Source: Patescibacteria group bacterium (GTDB taxonomy: Bacteria; Patescibacteriota; Patescibacteriia; Patescibacteriales; Patescibacteriaceae). From it: DNA of 64,000 nt. Location of the stretch: NCBI GenBank assembly GCA_030583705.1, contig CP129471.1, positions 50,506 to 114,505 on the forward strand, written 5' to 3'. Below are positions 16,254 to 49,693 of the stretch, one piece after another; the first letter of the stretch is position 1, and every line of letters begins with the position of its first letter. The notes under the pieces were generated by a model. It searched no databases. It saw only the letters and a program-made list of their open reading frames with translations, and had not been told where the DNA came from. The position numbers and the translations under genes were made by a program.

Positions 16254-17146
16254 AACTCTCATATCTCTATGATGTATTTAAGCAACATATTAAATCCTAT
16301 AAGTGGCTAGCGCTTTCTTGTTTGTTTGCGTAGAGGCCGCTTAACAAGCGGTTTTTTTGTTCCCTTAAAAGTATTTTGTCCGCTCGCGGAATTGTTACTT
16401 CGGTAATAATTCCACGACCGTATAAAATACGGTTACCTTAAAAATTGAACACGCGAATAAAGTAACTGTAATTTTGTAAGTTAAGAGTCCAATTAATGAT
16501 GATCTGCATTTTTGAAAACAAAGATGTAGGAAAATCTCGTAAGGGTGTATGGTGGATGCCTTGACTCAAGAAGACGATGAAGGACGTAGCAGTCTGCGAT
16601 AAGCCTCGGTTAGGTGACAAGCAACCTTTGACCCGGGGATTTCCGAATGGGGAAACCTATCCTGTTGAAGACAGGATGTCCGCATGCTGAACACATAGGC
16701 ATGTGAGACGAGTACTCGGTGAACTGAAACATCTTAGTAGCCGAAGGAAAAGAAAACAAATTTAATCTTTTATCAAGATTGACGATTTTTCGTCTGTTTT
16801 GATAAGAGATTGCGATTCCCTGAGTAGTGGCGAGCGAAAGGGGAGCAGCCTAAACCGTTTAGACCATATATACTGGACTCACTTCGGTGAGAAAAGTATG
16901 TTGAAGGAATTAGGTCCATATGTTTTTACGGTGTTGTAAGAGTGCCATGATTGCTACCTAATGCGGCAAGACGGCGCTATTGAATTATTAGTCGAAGGAG
17001 CTGGAAAGCTCGGCCAAAGACGGTGATAGCCCGGTAGACGAAAATAAGACAGGCGTTGTGATGGCAAATCTTAAGTACTGCGGGACTCGTGAAATTCCGT
17101 GGGAAGCAGGGTCGACTATGACCCAAGGCTAAATACTTCTTGAGAT

Positions 17147-17183
<37 letters not shown>

Positions 17184-18692
17184 CATCCCGGTGAGGGAGA
17201 TGAAATAGTATCTGAAACCATATACTTACAAGCAGTCGGAGCCTGTTACCTTCGGGTAATCGGGTGACGGCGTGCCTATTGAAGAATGAGCCAACGAGTT
17301 TGTTGTATGCGGCTTGATTAATTCCGTTAAACGGAAGCAGTCATAGTGAAAGCGAGGGTTAACCGCCCGTACTCTTATTTATTAGAAGTGGCAATAATTT
17401 GTCCTTACGCAAGTAAGGCTTTGTTGTTCTTCTATTAGATAAGAAGGTCGCATGCACAAGACCCGAAGCCGGGTGATCTAACCATGGCCAGGTTGAACCT
17501 TGACGAAAGTCAAGGGGAGGACCGAACCCGTAAGTCGTGCAACACTTTGGGATGAGCTGTGGTTAGCGGAGAAATTCCAATCGAACTCGGCAATAGCTGG
17601 TTCTCCTCGAAATAGCTTTAGGGCTAGCCTCGAGCGCTGAACATGGGGGGTAGAGCACTGAATGGGGGTGGGCCGCAAGGTACCTTCTCCAACCAAACTC
17701 CGAATACCCATGCGTGTAGCTCGGGAGTCAGACTATGGGCGCTAAGGTCCATCAGTCGAAAGGGAAACAGCCCAGATCGCCATCTAAGGTCCCTAAATAT
17801 AAACTAAGTGTAAAAGGTGGTGTCGTGACCGCGACAACTAGGAGGTTGGCTTAGAAGCAGCCATCCTTTAAAGATAGCGTAATAGCTCACTAGTCTAGTC
17901 GTCTCGCGCCGAAAATGTACCGGGGCTAAGTTTATTACCGAAGATGCGAACTTGTTACTTAGGTAACAAGTGGTAGAGGAGCATTCCAACGCCGCTGAAG
18001 TCGTGATGTGAGTCACGGTGGAGGTTTTGGAAGAGAGAATGTTGGCATAAGTAGCATAAAGGCGGGTGAAAACCCCGCCCACCGAAAATCTAAGGGTTCC
18101 TGGGCAACGTAAATCGTCCCAGGGTTAGTCGGCCCTAAGGCGAGGCTGCTGTAGTGGCAGCGTAGTCGATGGATGAGCTGGTTAATACTCCAGCACTACT
18201 GTAATTTTCCGATGGGGGGACGAAGTCTCAAGGTTCAAGCGTTTCTATGGTATGAACGTTGTTGTCCGCAAGAGCTGATCCAGGCAAATCCGGATCACCA
18301 AGCTCAAGCGGTTGACTGAAGACAAAGCTTTCGGGCGGCGTCAATTTGAGCTGAGAGATTTTCCAGAAAAGCCTCTAGGGTTAAGATTATAGTATCCGTA
18401 CCGTAAACCGACACAGGTAGATGAGGCGAGAAGCCTAAGGTGAACGAGAGAACCCTCGTTAAGGAACTCGGCAAAACAGCGGGCGTAAGTTAGCAATAAG
18501 CCCTGCCCCGCGCAAGCGGGGCCGCAGCGAAAGATTTCAAGTGACTGTTTACCAAAAACACAGCTCCCTGCTAACTCGTAAGAGGATGTATAGGGGGTGA
18601 TGCCTGGCCAGTGTCCGAACGTTAAGAGGAGAGGTTAGCACTTCGGTGCGAAGCTTTGAATCGAAGCGCGGATGAACGCCGGCCGTAACTAT

Positions 18693-19408
18693 AGAAGCTT
18701 AGGACGACCCTTTGGGTTTAAGCGTTGTAGTTACGTTAAAAAATCTGACTATATGCTGGAAACTCCCGTTAGACAAGCGGTACTCGGTTAAACACCAGTG
18801 AAAATCCGTTTGGTAGGGACAATCAGCAGGAAAGCTAATACTATGTTAAATATACAAAATATTCCGGACCGTATAGGCTATTATTTAGCCGGTTTTACGG
18901 ACGGAGAAGGTAGTTTTATGGTAGTGGTTCGTAATCGCCCGGATTTTCGGGCCGGTTATAAAGTTTCTCTTTGTTTTAATGTTTCTCAGAAAGAAAGTTA
19001 TATTCTTTCTCAGTTTAAAAAACATTTAGCTTGCGGAACTTTAAGATCACGACCTGATGGAGTCTGGTATTTTGAAGTTAATAACTTCAAGGCTATCAGT
19101 GAAAACATCATTCCTTTTTTTGATCGATTTGGTTTTTTGTCGCAAAACAAGAAAAAGCAATACGCTTTATTTAAGCGAGCGGCTTATATTATAAAAACTG
19201 AAACTCATTTGACCTTAGAGGGTTTTCAAAAAATTCTCTTAATACGAAGTCAAATGAATCGTGGTGGAAAAAGAAAAAACTTAGCATCCTCAGAGACTAT
19301 ACGTCAGACCCGTTTACGGGAAGATATAGTCCGACCTTCAGTGAAAGCTGAAGAGCTCAGCAGAAATGTTTGAGCCACTTAACGGCAACGTTAAGGAGTA
19401 ACAAGATG
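18693..19408 (+). mobile_element. group I intron in 23S rRNA (near E. coli position ~1917) carrying a LAGLIDADG homing endonuclease ORF
   Basis: Exon sequence GTAACTAT^AACGGTCC interrupted; 5' exon ends in U, intron ends in G; contains 'gactatatgctggaaactc' core also seen in the 16S intron 1. Confidence 0.7.
18798..19373 (+). CDS. LAGLIDADG homing endonuclease (intron-encoded; probable true start M 18843)
   Basis: 'YLAGFTDGEGSFMVVV' LAGLIDADG motif; located wholly within 23S intron. Confidence 0.75.
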   Translation: MKIRLVGTISRKANTMLNIQNIPDRIGYYLAGFTDGEGSFMVVVRNRPDFRAGYKVSLCFNVSQKESYILSQFKKHLACGTLRSRPDGVWYFEVNNFKAISENIIPFFDRFGFLSQNKKKQYALFKRAAYIIKTETHLTLEGFQKILLIRSQMNRGGKRKNLASSETIRQTRLREDIVRPSVKAEELSRNV

Positions 19409-19422
19409 AACGGTCCTAAGGT

Positions 19423-19749
19423 TGTGTAATTTTACGAAGGTAAGATTATACAAGGACTGGGACCGTTATCTTAAAGTTCGTTACCTGGCTATAATGAAAG
19501 TTGTAGTTGTCCTAAAACACCCAGTAAAATGCGCTAAAATCTTCAAAAGATTTTTGGTACCACTCTCTTTTATGAGACATGGTAAAAATCCGGAAATACA
19601 CGGAGGCAAGGCGCAGGATTAATTAAATATTAATCCCCAGAGACTTAACACTGGGGTCCTAAGATGTAAGACTAGTATCTGAAGTTAACTAGATTATATT
19701 ATGGATAAGATAAAGTCCGGGCTTAATAGATAATATTAAGAAGGACCAG
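19423..19749 (+). mobile_element. second, ORF-less intron in 23S rRNA (near E. coli ~1931), 14 nt downstream of intron 1
   Basis: Exon AACGGTCCTAAGGT^AGCGAAATTCC interrupted by 327 nt; 5' exon ends U, intron ends G. Confidence 0.55.
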
Positions 19750-19797
<48 letters not shown>

Positions 19798-20289
19798 AAC
19801 TTGAAAACTGTCTCAACGAGGGACTCGGCGAAATTACAGGACCGGTAAAGATGCCGGTTAACCATAGCTAGACGAAAAGACCCCGTGAAGCTTTACTACA
19901 GCTTGATATTGGGTTAGGGATATATCTGTTCAGAATAGGTGGGAGCCTTCGGGCGCCAGTGAGATACCACCCTGGTATATTTTTAATCCTCACTTCGATC
20001 CGTGAATCCGGATAAAGGACAGTATCTGGTGGGTAGTTTGTCTGGGGCGGATGCCTCCTAAAAGGTAACGGAGGCGTTTACAAAGGTTGGCTATCTCGGG
20101 ATGGAAACCCGGGAGATAGTGTAAAGGCATAAGCCAGCTTTACTGCAAGACCTACAAGTCGCGCAGTTGCGAAAGCAGAACTTAGTGATCCGACCGTGCG
20201 AAATAGAACGGCGGAAGCTCATCGGATAAAAGCTACTCCGGGGATAACAGGCTAGTCACGCCCAAGCGTCCACAGCGACGGCGTGGTTC

Positions 20290-20322
<33 letters not shown>

Positions 20323-20332
20323 GTGGAGAAGC

Positions 20333-20385
<53 letters not shown>

Positions 20386-20732
20386 CCGTCGTAAGACAGG
20401 TCGGTCTCCTCTCTACTATGGTCGCGGAAATTTGAGAAGGCTCTTCCCTAGTACGAGAGGACCGGGAAGAACGAAGCTCTAGTGTGCCAGTTGTCCTACC
20501 AAGGGCATTGCTGGGTAGCTACCTTCGGTTTAGATAAACGCTGAAAGCATCTAAGCGTGAAGCTGTCTTCAAGATTAGATTTCATAGGTTGGTCAGAGAC
20601 TATGACCTTGATAGGCTCCAGGTGTAAGTCCGGTAACGGATTGAGCCGAGGAGTACTAATAAACCATTAGATTTTCCTACAATTTTGTTTTTAAATCACA
20701 GTCTTTATTCGTGTGTCAATTTATAAGAGTTT

Positions 20733-20861
20733 GATGGCGCCGTCTTGGTGGTTCTTGCGAAGGGGTCACACCTGTTCTCATCTCGAACACAGAAGTTAAG
20801 CCCTTCAGCGCCGATGATACTTGGGCCGCCCAAGCCCTGGGAAAGTAGGTCGCCGCCAGGA
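20733..20861 (+). rRNA. rrf: 5S rRNA
   Basis: 'ggcgccgtcttggtgg..cctgttctcatctcgaacacagaagttaagc..gccgatgatacttggg..gtaggtcgccgccagg' matches 5S consensus. Confidence 0.85.
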
Positions 20862-45738: not shown

Positions 45739-45773
<35 letters not shown>

Positions 45774-46214
45774 ATGTGTCTAAGGCATGCAAGTCGAACG
45801 CGCGTAGCAATACGCGAGTGGCAAACGGGAGAGTAACACATTGGTAACTTACCTTGAAGACGGGTATAGCTCGGAGAAATCCGAGGTAATCCCCGATAGT
45901 CATGGGGGGACATAAGTCATTCCCATGTAAATGGTCCGCCGCTTCAAGAGAGGCCTATGTTCTATCAGCTTGTTGGTAAGGTAACGGCTTACCAAGGCTA
46001 CGACGGATAGCGGGTGTGAGAGCATGACCCGCCTCACTGGGACTGAGAAACTGCCCAGACTCCTACGGGAGGCTGCAGTCAAGAATCTTCCTCAATGGCC
46101 GCAAGGCTGAAGGAGCGACATCGCGTGCAGGAGGAAGCCCTTCGGGGTGTAAACTGCTTTTCTCTGGGAAGAAACAATGACGGTACCAGAGGAATAAGGG
46201 GTTGCTAAACTCGT

Positions 46215-47112
46215 AAAATAAAATTTAGCAGTAAACCTTGTATTATCGGAGTGCGACTCTTAACGGTAACGTTAAGATGCATAACTCGGCTTATATGCTG
46301 GGAACTCTAACCACGTTAATAATCTGCTGTTTAGTGGTTAGACAATCAGCAGGGAAGTTGTTATGATTCAGTTATGAATATTAGTTTAACACAAAGACAA
46401 AGATCAATTGTCATCGGCAATATTTTAGGTGATGGTTATTTGGATTTTAATGGTTTTCGCGGAACCAGGCTTCAAATGAAGCAGTCTAAAAATTATAAAA
46501 TGTATATTTTTTGGCTTTATCGTGAATTCTTTAATATATGCAAAGATCATCCCAAAGCAAGACCTGATGGTAGTCAATGGTTTTTCGGTACAAGATACCT
46601 AGATGAGCTAACAGAATTAAGGCAACGATTTTATAACATTTCAGGTAAAAAAATCGTTCCCAATGAGATCGGTAAAATTTTAACCGACCCTCTTTCTTTA
46701 GCTGTTTGGTATATGGACGACGGAACATTGGACTGGAGACTTAAAGATCATTATGCTTTCAGTTTAGCCATCAATTGCTTTTCTCTATCGGAAGCGGCAA
46801 TGTTATCCAATACATTGCTCTGTAATTTTGATATTAAAACAACTGTGCAAAATCCTTTGTGCAGAGGTAAAAGATATCCAAGATTATACATAGGCAAAAC
46901 CGGCAGAGATAAATTTTTGTCTTTAATAAAACCTTATATGGTTTCTTGTTTTAACTATAAATTACCTCCTCATAATTAACCCCTCAGAGACTGATCCTTA
47001 AGTGGAGAGATAGCGGTACTTCAACTATGTTGAAAATCAATCTGCCGCTATAAAACGCCGGGCATCCTATTTTTATAGGATGGTGATATAGTCCAATTGG
47101 CAATATTTATTG
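46215..47112 (+). mobile_element. group I-type intron in 16S rRNA inserted inside the universal 515F site (after E. coli ~516), carrying a LAGLIDADG ORF
   Basis: Exon GCTAAACTCGT^GCCAGCAGCAGCGGTAATAC; 5' exon ends U, intron ends G; shares 'atatgctgggaactc' and 'acaatcagcagg' elements with 23S intron 1. Confidence 0.65.
46374..46979 (+). CDS. double-motif LAGLIDADG homing endonuclease (intron-encoded)
   Basis: 'IGNILGDGYLD' and 'LAVWYMDDGTLD' motifs. Confidence 0.75.
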   Translation: MNISLTQRQRSIVIGNILGDGYLDFNGFRGTRLQMKQSKNYKMYIFWLYREFFNICKDHPKARPDGSQWFFGTRYLDELTELRQRFYNISGKKIVPNEIGKILTDPLSLAVWYMDDGTLDWRLKDHYAFSLAINCFSLSEAAMLSNTLLCNFDIKTTVQNPLCRGKRYPRLYIGKTGRDKFLSLIKPYMVSCFNYKLPPHN

Positions 47113-47372
47113 GCCAGCAGCAGCGGTAATACGAGTACCCCAAGCGTTATCCGGATTTATTGGGCGTAAAGCGTGCGTAGGCGGTTTATAACATCTCTTG
47201 TTAAATCCCAAGGCTCAACCTTGGGGCTGCGGGAGATATGGATAAACTAGAGACTGGGAGAGGCAAGCGGAATTGCTGGTGTAGGGGTTAAATCCGTTAA
47301 TATCAGCAGGAACACCAAAAGCGAAGGCAGCTTGCTAGAACAGTTCTGACGCTCAGGCACGAAAGCGTGGGG

Positions 47373-47403
<31 letters not shown>

Positions 47404-47482
47404 CGCCGTAAACGATGGATGCTGAGCATTGGGAGTTTCGACCCTCTCAGTGCTGTCTATCTAAGTTAACACCTTAAGCATC

Positions 47483-47524
<42 letters not shown>

Positions 47525-47525
47525 A

Positions 47526-47569
<44 letters not shown>

Positions 47570-47989
47570 ATTAAGCGAGGAACCTCACCAAGGTTTGACA
47601 TATAGCTGCAGACCCCTGGAAACAGGGGAGCCTTCGAGGGTGCTATACAGATGCTGCATGGTTGTCGTCAGCTCGTGTTGTGAAATGTACCGTTAAGTCG
47701 GGAAACGAGCGCAACCCCTACCCTATGTTTTACGTGTCATAGGGGACTGTCTGCTTTAAGCAGGAGGAAGGTGGGGATGACGTCAAATCAGCATGGTTCT
47801 TACACCTTGGGCGACACACGTGCTACAATGGGAAGTACAAAGGGACGCCAAACCGTAAGGTGGAGCAAATCCCAAAAAACTTCTCTCAGTTCGGATTGAG
47901 GGCTGCAACTCGCCCTCATGAAGCTGGAATCGCTAGTAAACGCGGATCAGCCATGCCGCGTTGAATACGTTCTCGGGTCTTGTACTCAC

Positions 47990-48878
47990 AATAAAAGCGC
48001 CGGGCAGTTTAATGGAGAAGATTGTTTATAACATATCTTCTTATAATCCAAGGAGTTAAAATCTCCTCCTCCGTATCGTCTACGGAGAGTAGTTGAAGGA
48101 TAGTCGTCAATCGTGAGGTTGGCGGTGAAGGATCCGGAAACAAATTTTAGTCCGACATAAAAACGGTCGCATCGACTTTTGAATAGGTGGTGAGCAAAAG
48201 GAAGATGCCAAGCCAAGACCGGTTGGAATGAAAGGAATGGAACATTAAATGACCCCGGGAGATCTTGCGCTGTCTTATTTGTATGTTATTATATAAATAA
48301 GTAAAGAAACTTACGCAGCGTAAGAAGTCAGCTGAATCATAGTACCTCGTTTTTCGAGGGAAGGATTCACTCAGTGCATATGGAATTAGAGACAAATTAC
48401 ATTGTCGGTTTGGTTGACGGAGAAGGAAGTTTTACGGTTTACGTAAAAGATCCGGATTCCGTTAAGCAAGTTAAGAGGCGAACAAAAGTTGAGCCGAGAT
48501 TTTTTATTAAGCTAATTGAGAAAGATAAAGAAATTCTTTTTCAGCTTAAAAAATATTTTGGTTGCGGTAATGTTTATTTTCAAAAAGACAACCGCTTAAA
48601 TCATCGTAATTGTTATCGCTATGAAGTATCGAATAGACAAGATTTGTTTAATATTATAATTCCTTTTTTCGAAAGTAACGTTTTGAAGTTACGCTCAAAA
48701 CGTGGTGACTTCGAAATTTTTTGCAGAATTATGAAGATGATACAGAATAAAGATCATCTAACAGATTCTGGCTGGTATAAAATATACCGGCTTAAGCAAA
48801 AAATGCATTAGAGCTCGCGTAGTGCGGGAAATCCGCTCGCTACGTGGGAACATCAATTTACAGTTTCGTAAAGATAAT
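47990..48878 (+). mobile_element. second intervening sequence in 16S rRNA at ~E. coli 1397-1400 (inside 1392/1406 universal region), carrying LAGLIDADG ORF; boundaries approximate
   Basis: 'cttgtactcac' and 'cgcccgtcacacca' separated by ~890 nt; boundary does not obey simple U/G group I rule so exact ends uncertain. Confidence 0.5.
48374..48811 (+). CDS. single-motif LAGLIDADG homing endonuclease (intron-encoded)
   Basis: 'IVGLVDGEGSFTVYV' motif; 145 aa (I-CreI-like size). Confidence 0.7.
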   Translation: MHMELETNYIVGLVDGEGSFTVYVKDPDSVKQVKRRTKVEPRFFIKLIEKDKEILFQLKKYFGCGNVYFQKDNRLNHRNCYRYEVSNRQDLFNIIIPFFESNVLKLRSKRGDFEIFCRIMKMIQNKDHLTDSGWYKIYRLKQKMH

Positions 48879-49253
48879 CGCCCGTCACACCAAGAGAGTC
48901 GGAGGCACCCGAACCCGCTATTGGAGCGGGGAAGGTGAAATCGATGATAAGGGTGAAGTCGTAACAAGGCATCCGTAGCGGAAGCTGTGGATGGATCACC
49001 TCCTTTCTAGGGAGAATTGTCCGCCTTAATTTAAGGTATGGACATGGTCGGCTAATCAACGCTCCGGTTACCGGAGATAGATTGGCAGAGAAACTTGAAT
49101 TGGCGCCTGTTCGCACTGAAATTAAAGCCAGCTGTTTTGTTTTACAAGACAGTCTTTTGGCTTACAAATAGTTTATGGGCCTATTTGTTTTTCAACAAAA
49201 AAAGACCGGCTTGTAAGAAAGGTCTTTTTTTGTTAGAATAAAAATTGCTTTTT

Positions 49254-49330
49254 CGGGCATATAGCTCAGTTGGTTAGAGCGCAACACTGATAATGTTGAG
49301 GTCCATGGTTCGAATCCATGTATGCCCACC
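49254..49330 (+). tRNA. tRNA-Ile (anticodon GAT), CCA encoded
   Basis: Cloverleaf folded by eye: acceptor gggcata/tatgccc, anticodon loop 'ctGATaa', T-arm 'ggttcgaatcc'. Confidence 0.85.
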
Positions 49331-49351
49331 AAGAAGCTTAGCTTCTTTTTG

Positions 49352-49424
49352 TCGCGGGGTAGAGCAGCTGGCAGCTCGCCAGGCCCATAACCTGGAGGTC
49401 GCGGGTTCGAATCCCGCCCCCGCA
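49352..49424 (+). tRNA. tRNA-Met (anticodon CAT), probable initiator (C1:A72 mismatch); no encoded CCA
   Basis: Acceptor cgcgggg/ccccgca with C1-A72 mismatch, anticodon loop 'ccCATaa', T-arm 'gcgggttcgaatcccgc'. Confidence 0.75.
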
Positions 49425-49431
49425 ACAAGTT

Positions 49432-49503
49432 CGCCTTGGTAGCTCAGTGGTAGAGCAGTGGCCTGAAGAGCCTCGTGTCGTCAGTTCGATTCTGACCCAA
49501 GGC
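49432..49503 (+). tRNA. tRNA-Phe (anticodon GAA); no encoded CCA
   Basis: Acceptor gccttgg/ccaaggc, D-arm 'gctcagtggtagagc', anticodon loop 'ctGAAga', T-arm 'gtcagttcgattctgac'. Confidence 0.8.
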
Positions 49504-49516
49504 ACAGTTTTATCTA

Positions 49517-49587
49517 ACGGGGTGTCGTATACCGGTAGTACGCACGCTTTGGGAGCGTGTTGACTGGGTTCAATTCCCAGCACCCCG
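49517..49587 (+). tRNA. tRNA-Pro (anticodon TGG); no encoded CCA
   Basis: Acceptor cggggtg/caccccg, anticodon stem cacgc/gcgtg with loop 'ttTGGga', T-arm 'ctgggttcaattcccag'. Confidence 0.75.
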
Positions 49588-49597
49588 ACAAAGAATA

Positions 49598-49669
49598 AGC
49601 GGGTATAGTATAATGGCTATTATGTTGGCCTTCCAAGCCGAAGATGCGGGTTCGATCCCCGCTACCCGC
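49598..49669 (+). tRNA. tRNA-Gly (anticodon TCC), U73 discriminator; no encoded CCA
   Basis: Acceptor gcgggta/tacccgc, anticodon loop 'ctTCCaa', T-arm 'gcgggttcgatccccgc'. Confidence 0.75.
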
Positions 49670-49693
49670 TCATAGGTTTTTTTGAATTACGAA

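Follow-up and report, generated by a model that had tools for sequence, protein, structure and literature searches.

A 23S ribosomal RNA (rRNA) gene lying in a 64,000-nt stretch of the genome of a Patescibacteria group bacterium (assembly GCA_030583705.1, contig CP129471.1, positions 50,506 to 114,505; this whole stretch is hereafter called the window) is interrupted twice, at positions 1917 and 1931 in Escherichia coli (E. coli) numbering. We consider it highly probable that the two inserts are independent group I introns of a single 23S gene, flanking an exon of 14 nt, and that homing and self-splicing account for their presence and their removal. The host is a metagenome-assembled genome of the Candidate Phyla Radiation (CPR) with a small genome; eight proteins encoded in the window are identical to proteins of its 869,590-bp contig. 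The interrupted gene (16529-20679, plus strand) was recognized by the Rfam model LSU_rRNA_bacteria with 2377 bits.

The insertion sites were located by a MAFFT alignment of the 23S rRNA gene of the window with E. coli rrlH, and the E. coli numbering was verified on the sequence of helix 69 (H69), in which GGCCGTAACTATAACGGTCCTAAGGTAGCG starts at position 1906. Insert 1 (716 nt, 18693-19408, plus strand) lies directly after U1917 and insert 2 (327 nt, 19423-19749, plus strand) directly after U1931, exactly at the L1917 and L1931 sites named in an earlier note made from the sequence alone, whose coordinates, lengths and 14-nt spacing were all correct. The exon order read from the window is GTAACTAT^AACGGTCCTAAGGT^AGCGAAATTCC, and the boundaries of both inserts are unambiguous, as any shift would break the exon sequence. 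On the plus strand, the 5' exon ends with the 8 nt GUAACUAU (18685-18692, E. coli 1910-1917), the exon strand of the P1 helix of intron 1; the mini-exon AACGGUCCUAAGGU, the same as AACGGTCCTAAGGT (19409-19422, E. coli 1918-1931, from the sequence and the E. coli alignment), is the 3' half of H69; and the 3' exon starts with AGCGAAAUUCC (19750-19760, E. coli 1932 onward). T (U in the RNA) ends both 5' exons and G ends both inserts, in line with the rule of a 5'-exon U and an intron-terminal G that the earlier note had applied to them. Removal of intron 1 restores the uninterrupted sequence at this site, with GTAACTAT joined to AACGG; after both excisions the exons would read GTAACTAT, AACGGTCCTAAGGT and AGCGAAATT in direct succession, with the expected ligated junctions UAU/AACGG for intron 1 and AGGU/AGCG for intron 2.

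The entire stretch of exon, intron 1, mini-exon, intron 2 and exon (1.07 kb) recurs in six independent short contigs that three studies have made public, and in all six the two introns and the mini-exon show 100% identity with the window; the runs that hold identical contigs include some of the DRR7791xx and DRR8593xx series. An assembly accident peculiar to this window is thus not the cause of the arrangement. The presence of the introns is patchy among the closest relatives by 23S, as expected for mobile elements: two loci (L009 and L010) carry the L1917 intron only, and another (L100) the L1931 intron only.

Intron 1 belongs to a widespread L1917 group I family, as indicated by its insertion site, its partial Rfam matches and the covariation within the family. 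L1917 introns were gathered from contigs encoding homologues of the intron 1 protein and by a scan of a genome collection, and the resulting set spans Patescibacteria, Acidobacteria, Nitrospirota, Gemmatimonadota, Actinomycetota, proteobacteria and a Coxiella endosymbiont. The internal guide sequence (IGS) of intron 1 (18727-18734, GUAGUUAC) pairs with the end of the 5' exon in a P1 of 8 bp with U18692.G18727 at the splice site, a U.G pair kept in 16 of the 16 family members, and the P10 guide (18723-18726, CGUU) forms 4 bp with AACG, the first four bases of the mini-exon; both pairings were found by eye and by script. The core P3-P9 with its P3/P7 pseudoknot is present and is backed by covariation. 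It comprises P3 (18744-49/19303-08, UCUGAC/GUCAGA), P4 (18754-59/18823-28, UGCUGG/UCAGCA), P5 (18764-67/18816-19), P6 (18829-30/19288-89), P6a (18834-38/19281-85), P7 (19295-300/19326-31, with J6/7-P7 reading UCAGA-GACUAU and P7' reading AUAGUC), P8 (19309-20) and P9 (19336-53), followed by P9.1 (19355-75) and by P9.2 (19378-95), which has a GCAA loop; omegaG is the terminal base, G19408.

The proposed structure was scored on an alignment of 16 L1917 introns from which the open reading frames (ORFs) had been trimmed (alignment A1). Standard pairs occupied 95.5% of the cells, versus 31-40% when the partners were slid, 19 pairs were changed on both sides, and none of 500 shuffles matched the observed values. 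Compensatory changes were found in P3, P5, P7, P9 and P9.1, and RNAalifold run on the L1917 family independently gave P1, P3, P4, P5, P5a/b, P6, P6a, P8, P9, P9.1 and P9.2.

Intron 1 also carries a homing endonuclease gene (18843-19373, plus strand, with its ATG at 18843 and its stop codon at 19371-73) that encodes 176 amino acids (aa) and matches LAGLIDADG_1 (PF00961) with an E-value of 4.9e-18 and 66.3 bits against a cut-off of 23.1, in agreement with the LAGLIDADG endonuclease that the earlier note had read from the sequence. The protein has a single LAGLIDADG_1 domain with the motif YYLAGFTDGEGSF, which is intact in the translation (LAGFTDGEG), including its acidic final residue. Gene and ribozyme are intertwined: the gene starts in the P6 loop, just after the 5' strand of P6a, and stops in P9.1, its reading frame crosses P6a', P6', P7, P3', P8, P7' and P9, and the last ~30 of the 176 residues are encoded by the ribozyme core sequence. 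Each half of the monomeric I-SmaMI/I-OnuI-type enzymes aligns with the whole 176-aa chain (E ~1e-39), and the protein also aligns with single-domain archaeal enzymes. Because it has one domain only, it presumably works as a homodimer on a pseudo-palindromic site, and the H69 stem GGCCG...CGGTC is a pseudo-palindrome whose centre, 1915, lies two bases away from the site of insertion.

Public data hold 3733 homologues of this endonuclease. Three of them (P0015, P0020, and P0033; 67-69% identity) were traced, and all three are encoded in L1917 introns (loci L008-L014), which points to a site-specific endonuclease lineage. The predicted cleavage target is the intron-less 23S allele, at the H69 sequence around 1915-1917 (GGCCGTAACTATAACGGTCCTAAGG; CGCCGGCCGTAACTATAACGGTCCTAAGGTAGCG), and after cleavage of such an allele, repair would copy intron 1 in. 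Intron 1 is a complete mobile unit made of a ribozyme and an endonuclease gene, for which homing and cleavage activity are predicted from the sequence.

Intron 2 is a CPR-type L1931 group I intron, assigned on the basis of Rfam, its fold, and covariation. The view of the earlier note that it contains no convincing ORF holds, since its only ORF is one of 66 aa with a TTG start and without any Pfam match. The intron opens with a 5' hairpin (19423-52) flush with the exon boundary, followed by AGGAC (19453-57), which pairs with GUCCU (19509-13) located after P2, and by GGGACCGUU (19459-67), the complement of mini-exon positions 19409-17. The IGS, GUU/ACCU (19480-19486, plus strand), lies ~58 nt into the intron; its GUU faces AGC of the 3' exon (P10) and its ACCU faces AGGU of the 5' exon (P1). 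Next come P2 (19487-508), P3 (19520-25/19650-55), P4 (19530-34/19611-15), P5 (19540-44/19602-06), P5a (19550-57/19590-97), P6 (19616-36), P7 (19642-46/19713-17), P8 (19657-705) and P9 (19722-40), and omegaG is again the terminal base, G19749. The minimum free energy fold of the single sequence contains the 5' hairpin, P2, P3, P4, P5, P5a, P5b, P6, P8 and P9 (z = -4.3), and the core P3-P9, J6/7, J8/7 and omegaG are all intact.

The nearest relatives of intron 2 among the matches listed (L008, L100, and L139) have all helices in common with it. In an alignment of these four sequences, 96.4% of the cells were paired, 16 pairs were changed on both sides and, again, 0 of 500 shuffles matched the observed values. 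The three relatives hold a LAGLIDADG_1 ORF of 460 nt within P8, whereas P8 of the window is 51 nt long; intron 2 thus represents a mobile intron in its ORF-less state, and it fits a homing cycle in which an intron would be gained, lose its ORF and finally be lost itself.

To place intron 2 among the L1931 introns, the species-genome collection was scanned for AACGGTCCTAAGGT followed by a non-A base, which returned at least 120 loci; at least 76 genuine 23S genes with an L1931 insertion were present among the matches listed, and 17 of 76 L1931-bearing genomes also had the L1917 insertion with the same 14-nt exon. Two kinds of L1931 introns could be distinguished among these matches. The classic type occurs in many phyla and has its guide, CGCU-A-GCCUUAG, in the first ~20 nt. 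The CPR type has a covarying hairpin at its very start, flush with the splice site, then the conserved AAGGACUGGGACYGUU and, further in, a conserved G(C/U)U(G/A)CCU (GYURCCU) directly 5' of a GNRA-capped P2 hairpin. In intron 2 this element reads GUUACCU, is located directly 5' of P2 and complements the ligated junction AGGU/AGC exactly, one of the pairs being G.U. It is complementary to both exons (P1 and P10), as a guide should be, and the intron ends with omegaG; the GYURCCU element was taken as the probable guide sequence of CPR-type L1931 introns.

Among the loci gathered, one 23S gene (L008, GCA_054005455.1, 2844-6341) contains four successive introns, at about L1917, L1931, L1951 and L2500, each of which encodes a LAGLIDADG protein of its own (LAGLIDADG_1 in three, LAGLIDADG_2 in one). 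Several CPR-type L1931 inserts with a G at the wobble position (L116, L152, L141, L185, L144, L202, and L222) have no G directly before AGCGAAATTCC, as in ...GGAAGCGAAA/AGCG; either these seven inserts lack omegaG or the search pattern misplaces their boundary.

Several observations weigh against the interpretation of the two inserts as self-splicing group I introns. The gathering threshold of the Rfam model Intron_gpI (RF00028) is 50 bits, and a scan of the whole window at this threshold returned no intron match. The scan proposed in the earlier note gave significant matches when run locally, but both remained below gathering: intron 2 scored 42.4 bits (E 3.8e-9, 19457-19740, model positions 1-253), and intron 1 gave two partial matches, one of 35.0 bits (E 6.3e-7) and the other of 18.2 bits, split by the 435-nt ORF segment that sits in P6. 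Moreover, A19483 faces the splice-site U19422 of intron 2, which makes a U-A pair in place of the canonical U.G, a departure that the earlier note missed, and the P1 of this intron is only 4 bp long. In the portions of the group I intron literature consulted here, the U.G splice-site pair is rated as required or critical. Finally, the two accessory complementarities of intron 2, AGGAC/GUCCU and GGGACCGUU/mini-exon, would be pseudoknotted with P1, so that the P1 assignment given above is not the only possible one.

Other guides were also considered for intron 2, but inspection of its sequence by eye revealed none that places a G opposite the splice-site U. A classic-type P1 with a G opposite U1931 (GCCUUAG) does not exist near the 5' end of the intron. 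AUCUUA (19468) and AUUUUA would also give a U-A pair and are not conserved, and GYURCCU next to P2 was preferred. GGGACCGUU, which pairs with the first nine bases of the mini-exon with -13.7 kcal/mol, and AGGAC were rejected as guides for the 5' exon of intron 2, as they stop short of the splice site and would be pseudoknotted with P1; the two pairings were kept as conserved but unexplained accessory pairings. As for the group I identity of both inserts, which the earlier note had put forward and which is borne out by covarying cores, guides and omegaG, we regard the comparative evidence (covariation and RNAalifold) as the decisive support for this predicted identity.

The U-A pair of intron 2 is shared with many other inserts. 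The guide of the three nearest relatives reads G(C/U)UGCCU, which restores the canonical U.G, whereas the window and the six identical contigs read GUUACCU. We surveyed the wobble position in CPR-type L1931 inserts among the matches listed, 34 distinct ones taken from genomes as well as metagenomes; in the metagenome pattern scan, which gave at least 121 pattern matches and returned at least 120 loci, 84 of the 121 matches had been dropped, having no CCTAAGGT exon end within 120 nt upstream. The wobble base was A in 18 inserts and G in the other 16. Of the 18 A-class inserts, 15 have only ~41 nt between the guide and J6/7, which leaves no room for P4-P6, and intron 2 of the window is one of the three A-class inserts that retain P4-P6. 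Many Patescibacteria 23S genes hold such L1931 inserts of 204-254 nt without P4-P6 (L123 at 2477-2680, L038, L043, L050, L054, L085, L119, L129, L145, L166, L201, L225, and others). These short inserts have retained the 5' hairpin and the guide GCUACC(U), along with P2, P3, P7, P8, omegaG and a covarying P9 of 4 bp, with A in place of G as the wobble base, and the 5' strand of P3 leads straight into J6/7. One of them (L123, 204 nt) reached only 11.8 bits with the Rfam group I model; the short inserts go unrecognized by Rfam, which is probably the reason why inserts of such size stand as unclassified in surveys.

The intact core of intron 2 and its identical sequence in contigs of several samples argue that the U-A pair is tolerated. 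We tentatively raise the possibility, to which we would give a modest probability, that the CPR-type L1931 lineage has relaxed two supposedly essential features of group I introns, namely the wobble G and, in most A-class members, P4-P6. The short inserts (~205-250 nt) retain P1/P10, P2, P3, P7, P8, P9 and omegaG and still covary. Should they indeed be excised and their exons ligated, they would represent group I ribozymes minimized by nature, or else derivatives assisted by proteins or in trans, in which the 5' splice site is recognized without a wobble receptor. Intron 2, with its U-A pair and its retained P4-P6, would then be an intermediate form, and splicing of the short inserts, if it occurs, would be informative as to the smallest part of a group I ribozyme that suffices in vivo.

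The same data can be read in another way, in which intron 2 is a decaying group I relic and a poor self-splicer, whose removal needs help, for instance from a host factor or from a maturase such as the LAGLIDADG protein of intron 1 or of another intron. In organelles, LAGLIDADG proteins are known to act as maturases. The U-A pair at the splice site where the closest relatives have G, the 4-bp P1 and the lack of an ORF all fit a relic, as does the further reduction that accompanies the A variant in the 15 inserts without room for P4-P6, down to the insert with 11.8 bits. However, P3-P9, J6/7, J8/7 and omegaG are intact and covary with those of the relatives, and the sequence recurs unchanged in six contigs of three studies, so that it is no sporadic lesion. 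The A variant is also common and conserved, which argues for tolerance, and the removal of intron 2 must be efficient, as this is the sole 23S gene seen in the window and the genome is ~0.87 Mb. We thus find it rather improbable that intron 2 is such a relic.

It is much less probable still that one or both inserts are intervening sequences (IVSs), cut out by RNase III-type processing without religation to leave a fragmented 23S rRNA. Known IVS sites are located elsewhere in 23S rRNA, in helices 9, 25 and 45, and a break within H69-H71 would detach a 14-nt piece of an essential intersubunit bridge. The hairpin that opens intron 2 flush with the exon boundary (19423-19452) and the failure of either insert to pass the Rfam gathering score would suit an IVS, and CPR 23S genes hold short non-intron insertions that are thought to be IVSs, according to the consulted parts of a survey (PMC11270868), but both inserts have complete covarying group I cores, guides matching both exons and a terminal G.

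That the arrangement is an assembly chimera of intron-containing fragments from different organisms has a negligible probability: in two contigs (L002 and L003), the 5' exon attached to the identical intron cassette differs by 20-26%, so that chimeric joins or transfers do occur here, but the window is part of a contig of 869,590 bp, its exons on both sides are colinear with E. coli 23S, and another four contigs, found in several samples, agree with it by 99.8-100% over the two introns and the exon on either side. When L002 (1-620) and L003 (1-580) were compared with window positions 18100-18760, identity began at 18585 for L002 and at 18663 for L003; their divergent exon reflects either chimeric assembly in conserved rRNA or a very recent lateral transfer with co-conversion.

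Returning to a pair of self-splicing group I introns as the preferred interpretation, both would have to leave the pre-rRNA for H69-H71 to form. The likeliest route of removal would be guanosine-initiated self-splicing in which each guide aligns its own two exons, and the guides would use separate parts of the mini-exon, AACG for P10 of intron 1 and AGGU for P1 of intron 2. For both introns, the catalytic activity, the homing and the order of splicing are predictions drawn from sequence comparison. The pair illustrates the homing cycle, an ORF-bearing L1917 intron standing beside an ORF-less L1931 intron whose sisters keep the gene, and is a clean example of CPR bacteria tolerating several mobile introns in a single rRNA operon. 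It is also useful for annotation: neither intron passes the default Rfam threshold, and the 23S gene would be mis-sized unless the introns are recognized.

The 16S rRNA gene of the window is interrupted as well. Its first insertion, a group I-like intron of ~898 nt (16S intron 1, 46215-47112), lies after E. coli U516 and contains an ORF of 201 aa for a LAGLIDADG_2 endonuclease (46374-46979). Its boundaries were set by blastn and by eye, since the MAFFT alignment to E. coli misplaced the intron; the Rfam 16S matches also misplace them (46248/46914), and no Rfam Intron_gpI match to this intron was found at E <= 0.01. The earlier note had pointed out motifs shared with 23S intron 1 and had suggested that a related intron family colonized both rRNA genes. 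The motifs are indeed present in both introns, TnTGCTGGRA at 18751 in 23S intron 1 and 46293 in 16S intron 1, and ATCAGCAGGRAA at 18819 and 46342, respectively. They correspond to P4 and P4'/P6, however, and occur together in 30 of 31 L1917 and 24 of 71 L1931 introns from many phyla among the loci listed, so that they are a core consensus marking a structural subgroup and not a family that colonized both genes of one genome. The comparison of the cores of the two ORF-containing introns, which the earlier note had recommended, gave no link beyond this subgroup level, as 16S intron 1 has a short P5, an extra ~55 nt between P7 and P3', an endonuclease of another family and different peripheral helices. 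A global alignment of the two introns was discarded as evidence of kinship, since its identities are gap-inflated and meaningful only at the core motifs.

In addition, an 18-nt GNRA-capped hairpin, CTTAACGG(C/T)AACGTTAAG (CUUAACG-GYAA-CGUUAAG), is common to 23S intron 1, where it forms P9.2 (19378-19395), and 16S intron 1, where it lies near the 5' end (46259-46276). None of the other loci fetched, other L1917 introns among them, contains it, and 0.03 occurrences are expected by chance. This hairpin could reflect an exchange between the introns or a common docking or binding partner.

A second 16S insertion, at E. coli 1399/1400 (47990-48878), gave weak matches to group II D1-D4 (48107-48366, 27-32 bits, below threshold) and contains an ORF of 145 aa (48374-48811) for a LAGLIDADG_1 protein 30% identical to the L1917 enzyme. 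It corresponds to the CPR 'group II-like IS with LHE at 16S 1400' described in the consulted parts of PMC11270868.

The rRNA genes of the window are unlinked. A 5S rRNA gene (20744-20861, plus strand; Rfam 5S, 92 bits) is located 3' of the 23S gene, the 23S-5S unit (16529-20861) and the 16S gene (45740-49005) share one strand, the former lying ~25 kb upstream of the latter, and the 16S gene is followed by five clustered tRNA genes (49255-49670). Compared with E. coli, domain I of the 23S gene contains four additional segments, each 50-73 nt long (16759-16808, 16857-16909, 16924-16984, and 17371-17443), which may be expansion segments or short IVSs.

Comparable twin introns are known from other bacteria. 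In Synechococcus sp. C9, L1917 and L1931 introns are located 14 nt apart, and each has a single-motif LAGLIDADG gene (Haugen et al. 2007, PMC1995217). The two sites, and hence the 14-nt exon, are the same as in the window, and the ORF of the L1917 intron runs from P6 through P7, P3 and P8 into P9, exactly as in intron 1. The two systems differ in that both Synechococcus introns carry an endonuclease gene while the L1931 intron of the window does not, and in that the latter belongs to the CPR-typical lineage, with a flush 5' hairpin and a guide ~58 nt into the intron instead of in its first ~20 nt. In Coxiella burnetii, the introns Cbu.L1917 and Cbu.L1951 flank an exon of 34 nt (Raghavan et al. 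2007, cited in PMC11270868); as far as the cited description goes, the second site is thus 1951, and the deviation concerns omegaG, unlike the deviation at the 5' splice-site wobble G in the window. A closer parallel is offered by the Coxiella endosymbiont of Ornithodoros amblus (L089, 5323-5992), in which L1917 and L1931 insertions flank the 14-nt exon. Its L1917 intron of 670 nt, which aligns with the ORF-bearing family, stands beside an L1931 intron of 287 nt; the endonuclease frame appears to be broken by stop codons and a deletion, and this gene is probably decaying. The intron 1 protein shares the LAGLIDADG_1 fold family with I-OnuI, I-SmaMI and the single-domain LAGLIDADG enzymes (PDB 4lq0, 4z1z, 5gkk, and 3e54), and differs from the monomeric I-OnuI and I-SmaMI, which have two halves, in being single-domain.

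The nearest precedent is a survey of CPR bacteria, the consulted parts of which report insertions in 82% of 23S genes, a concentration of LAGLIDADG_1 at sites that include 1917, 1931 and 1952, and the cleavage by a CPR enzyme, I-ShaI, of its site (Tsurumaki et al. 2024, PMC11270868). The insertions 23IS6 (1917) and 23IS7 (1931) described there agree with the introns of the window in host clade, sites, group-I-like structure and predominance of single-domain LAGLIDADG_1, and ORF-bearing and ORF-less versions coexist at one site in that survey as well. Its classification is based on Rfam, and P1, guides, the U-A pair and the kinship to short unclassified inserts are not covered in those parts. 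Twin introns in a CPR 23S gene are therefore an already documented habit of this group and not a new kind of element; the only unusual point of the pair described here is the U-A pair of intron 2 together with its kinship to the minimized CPR inserts.

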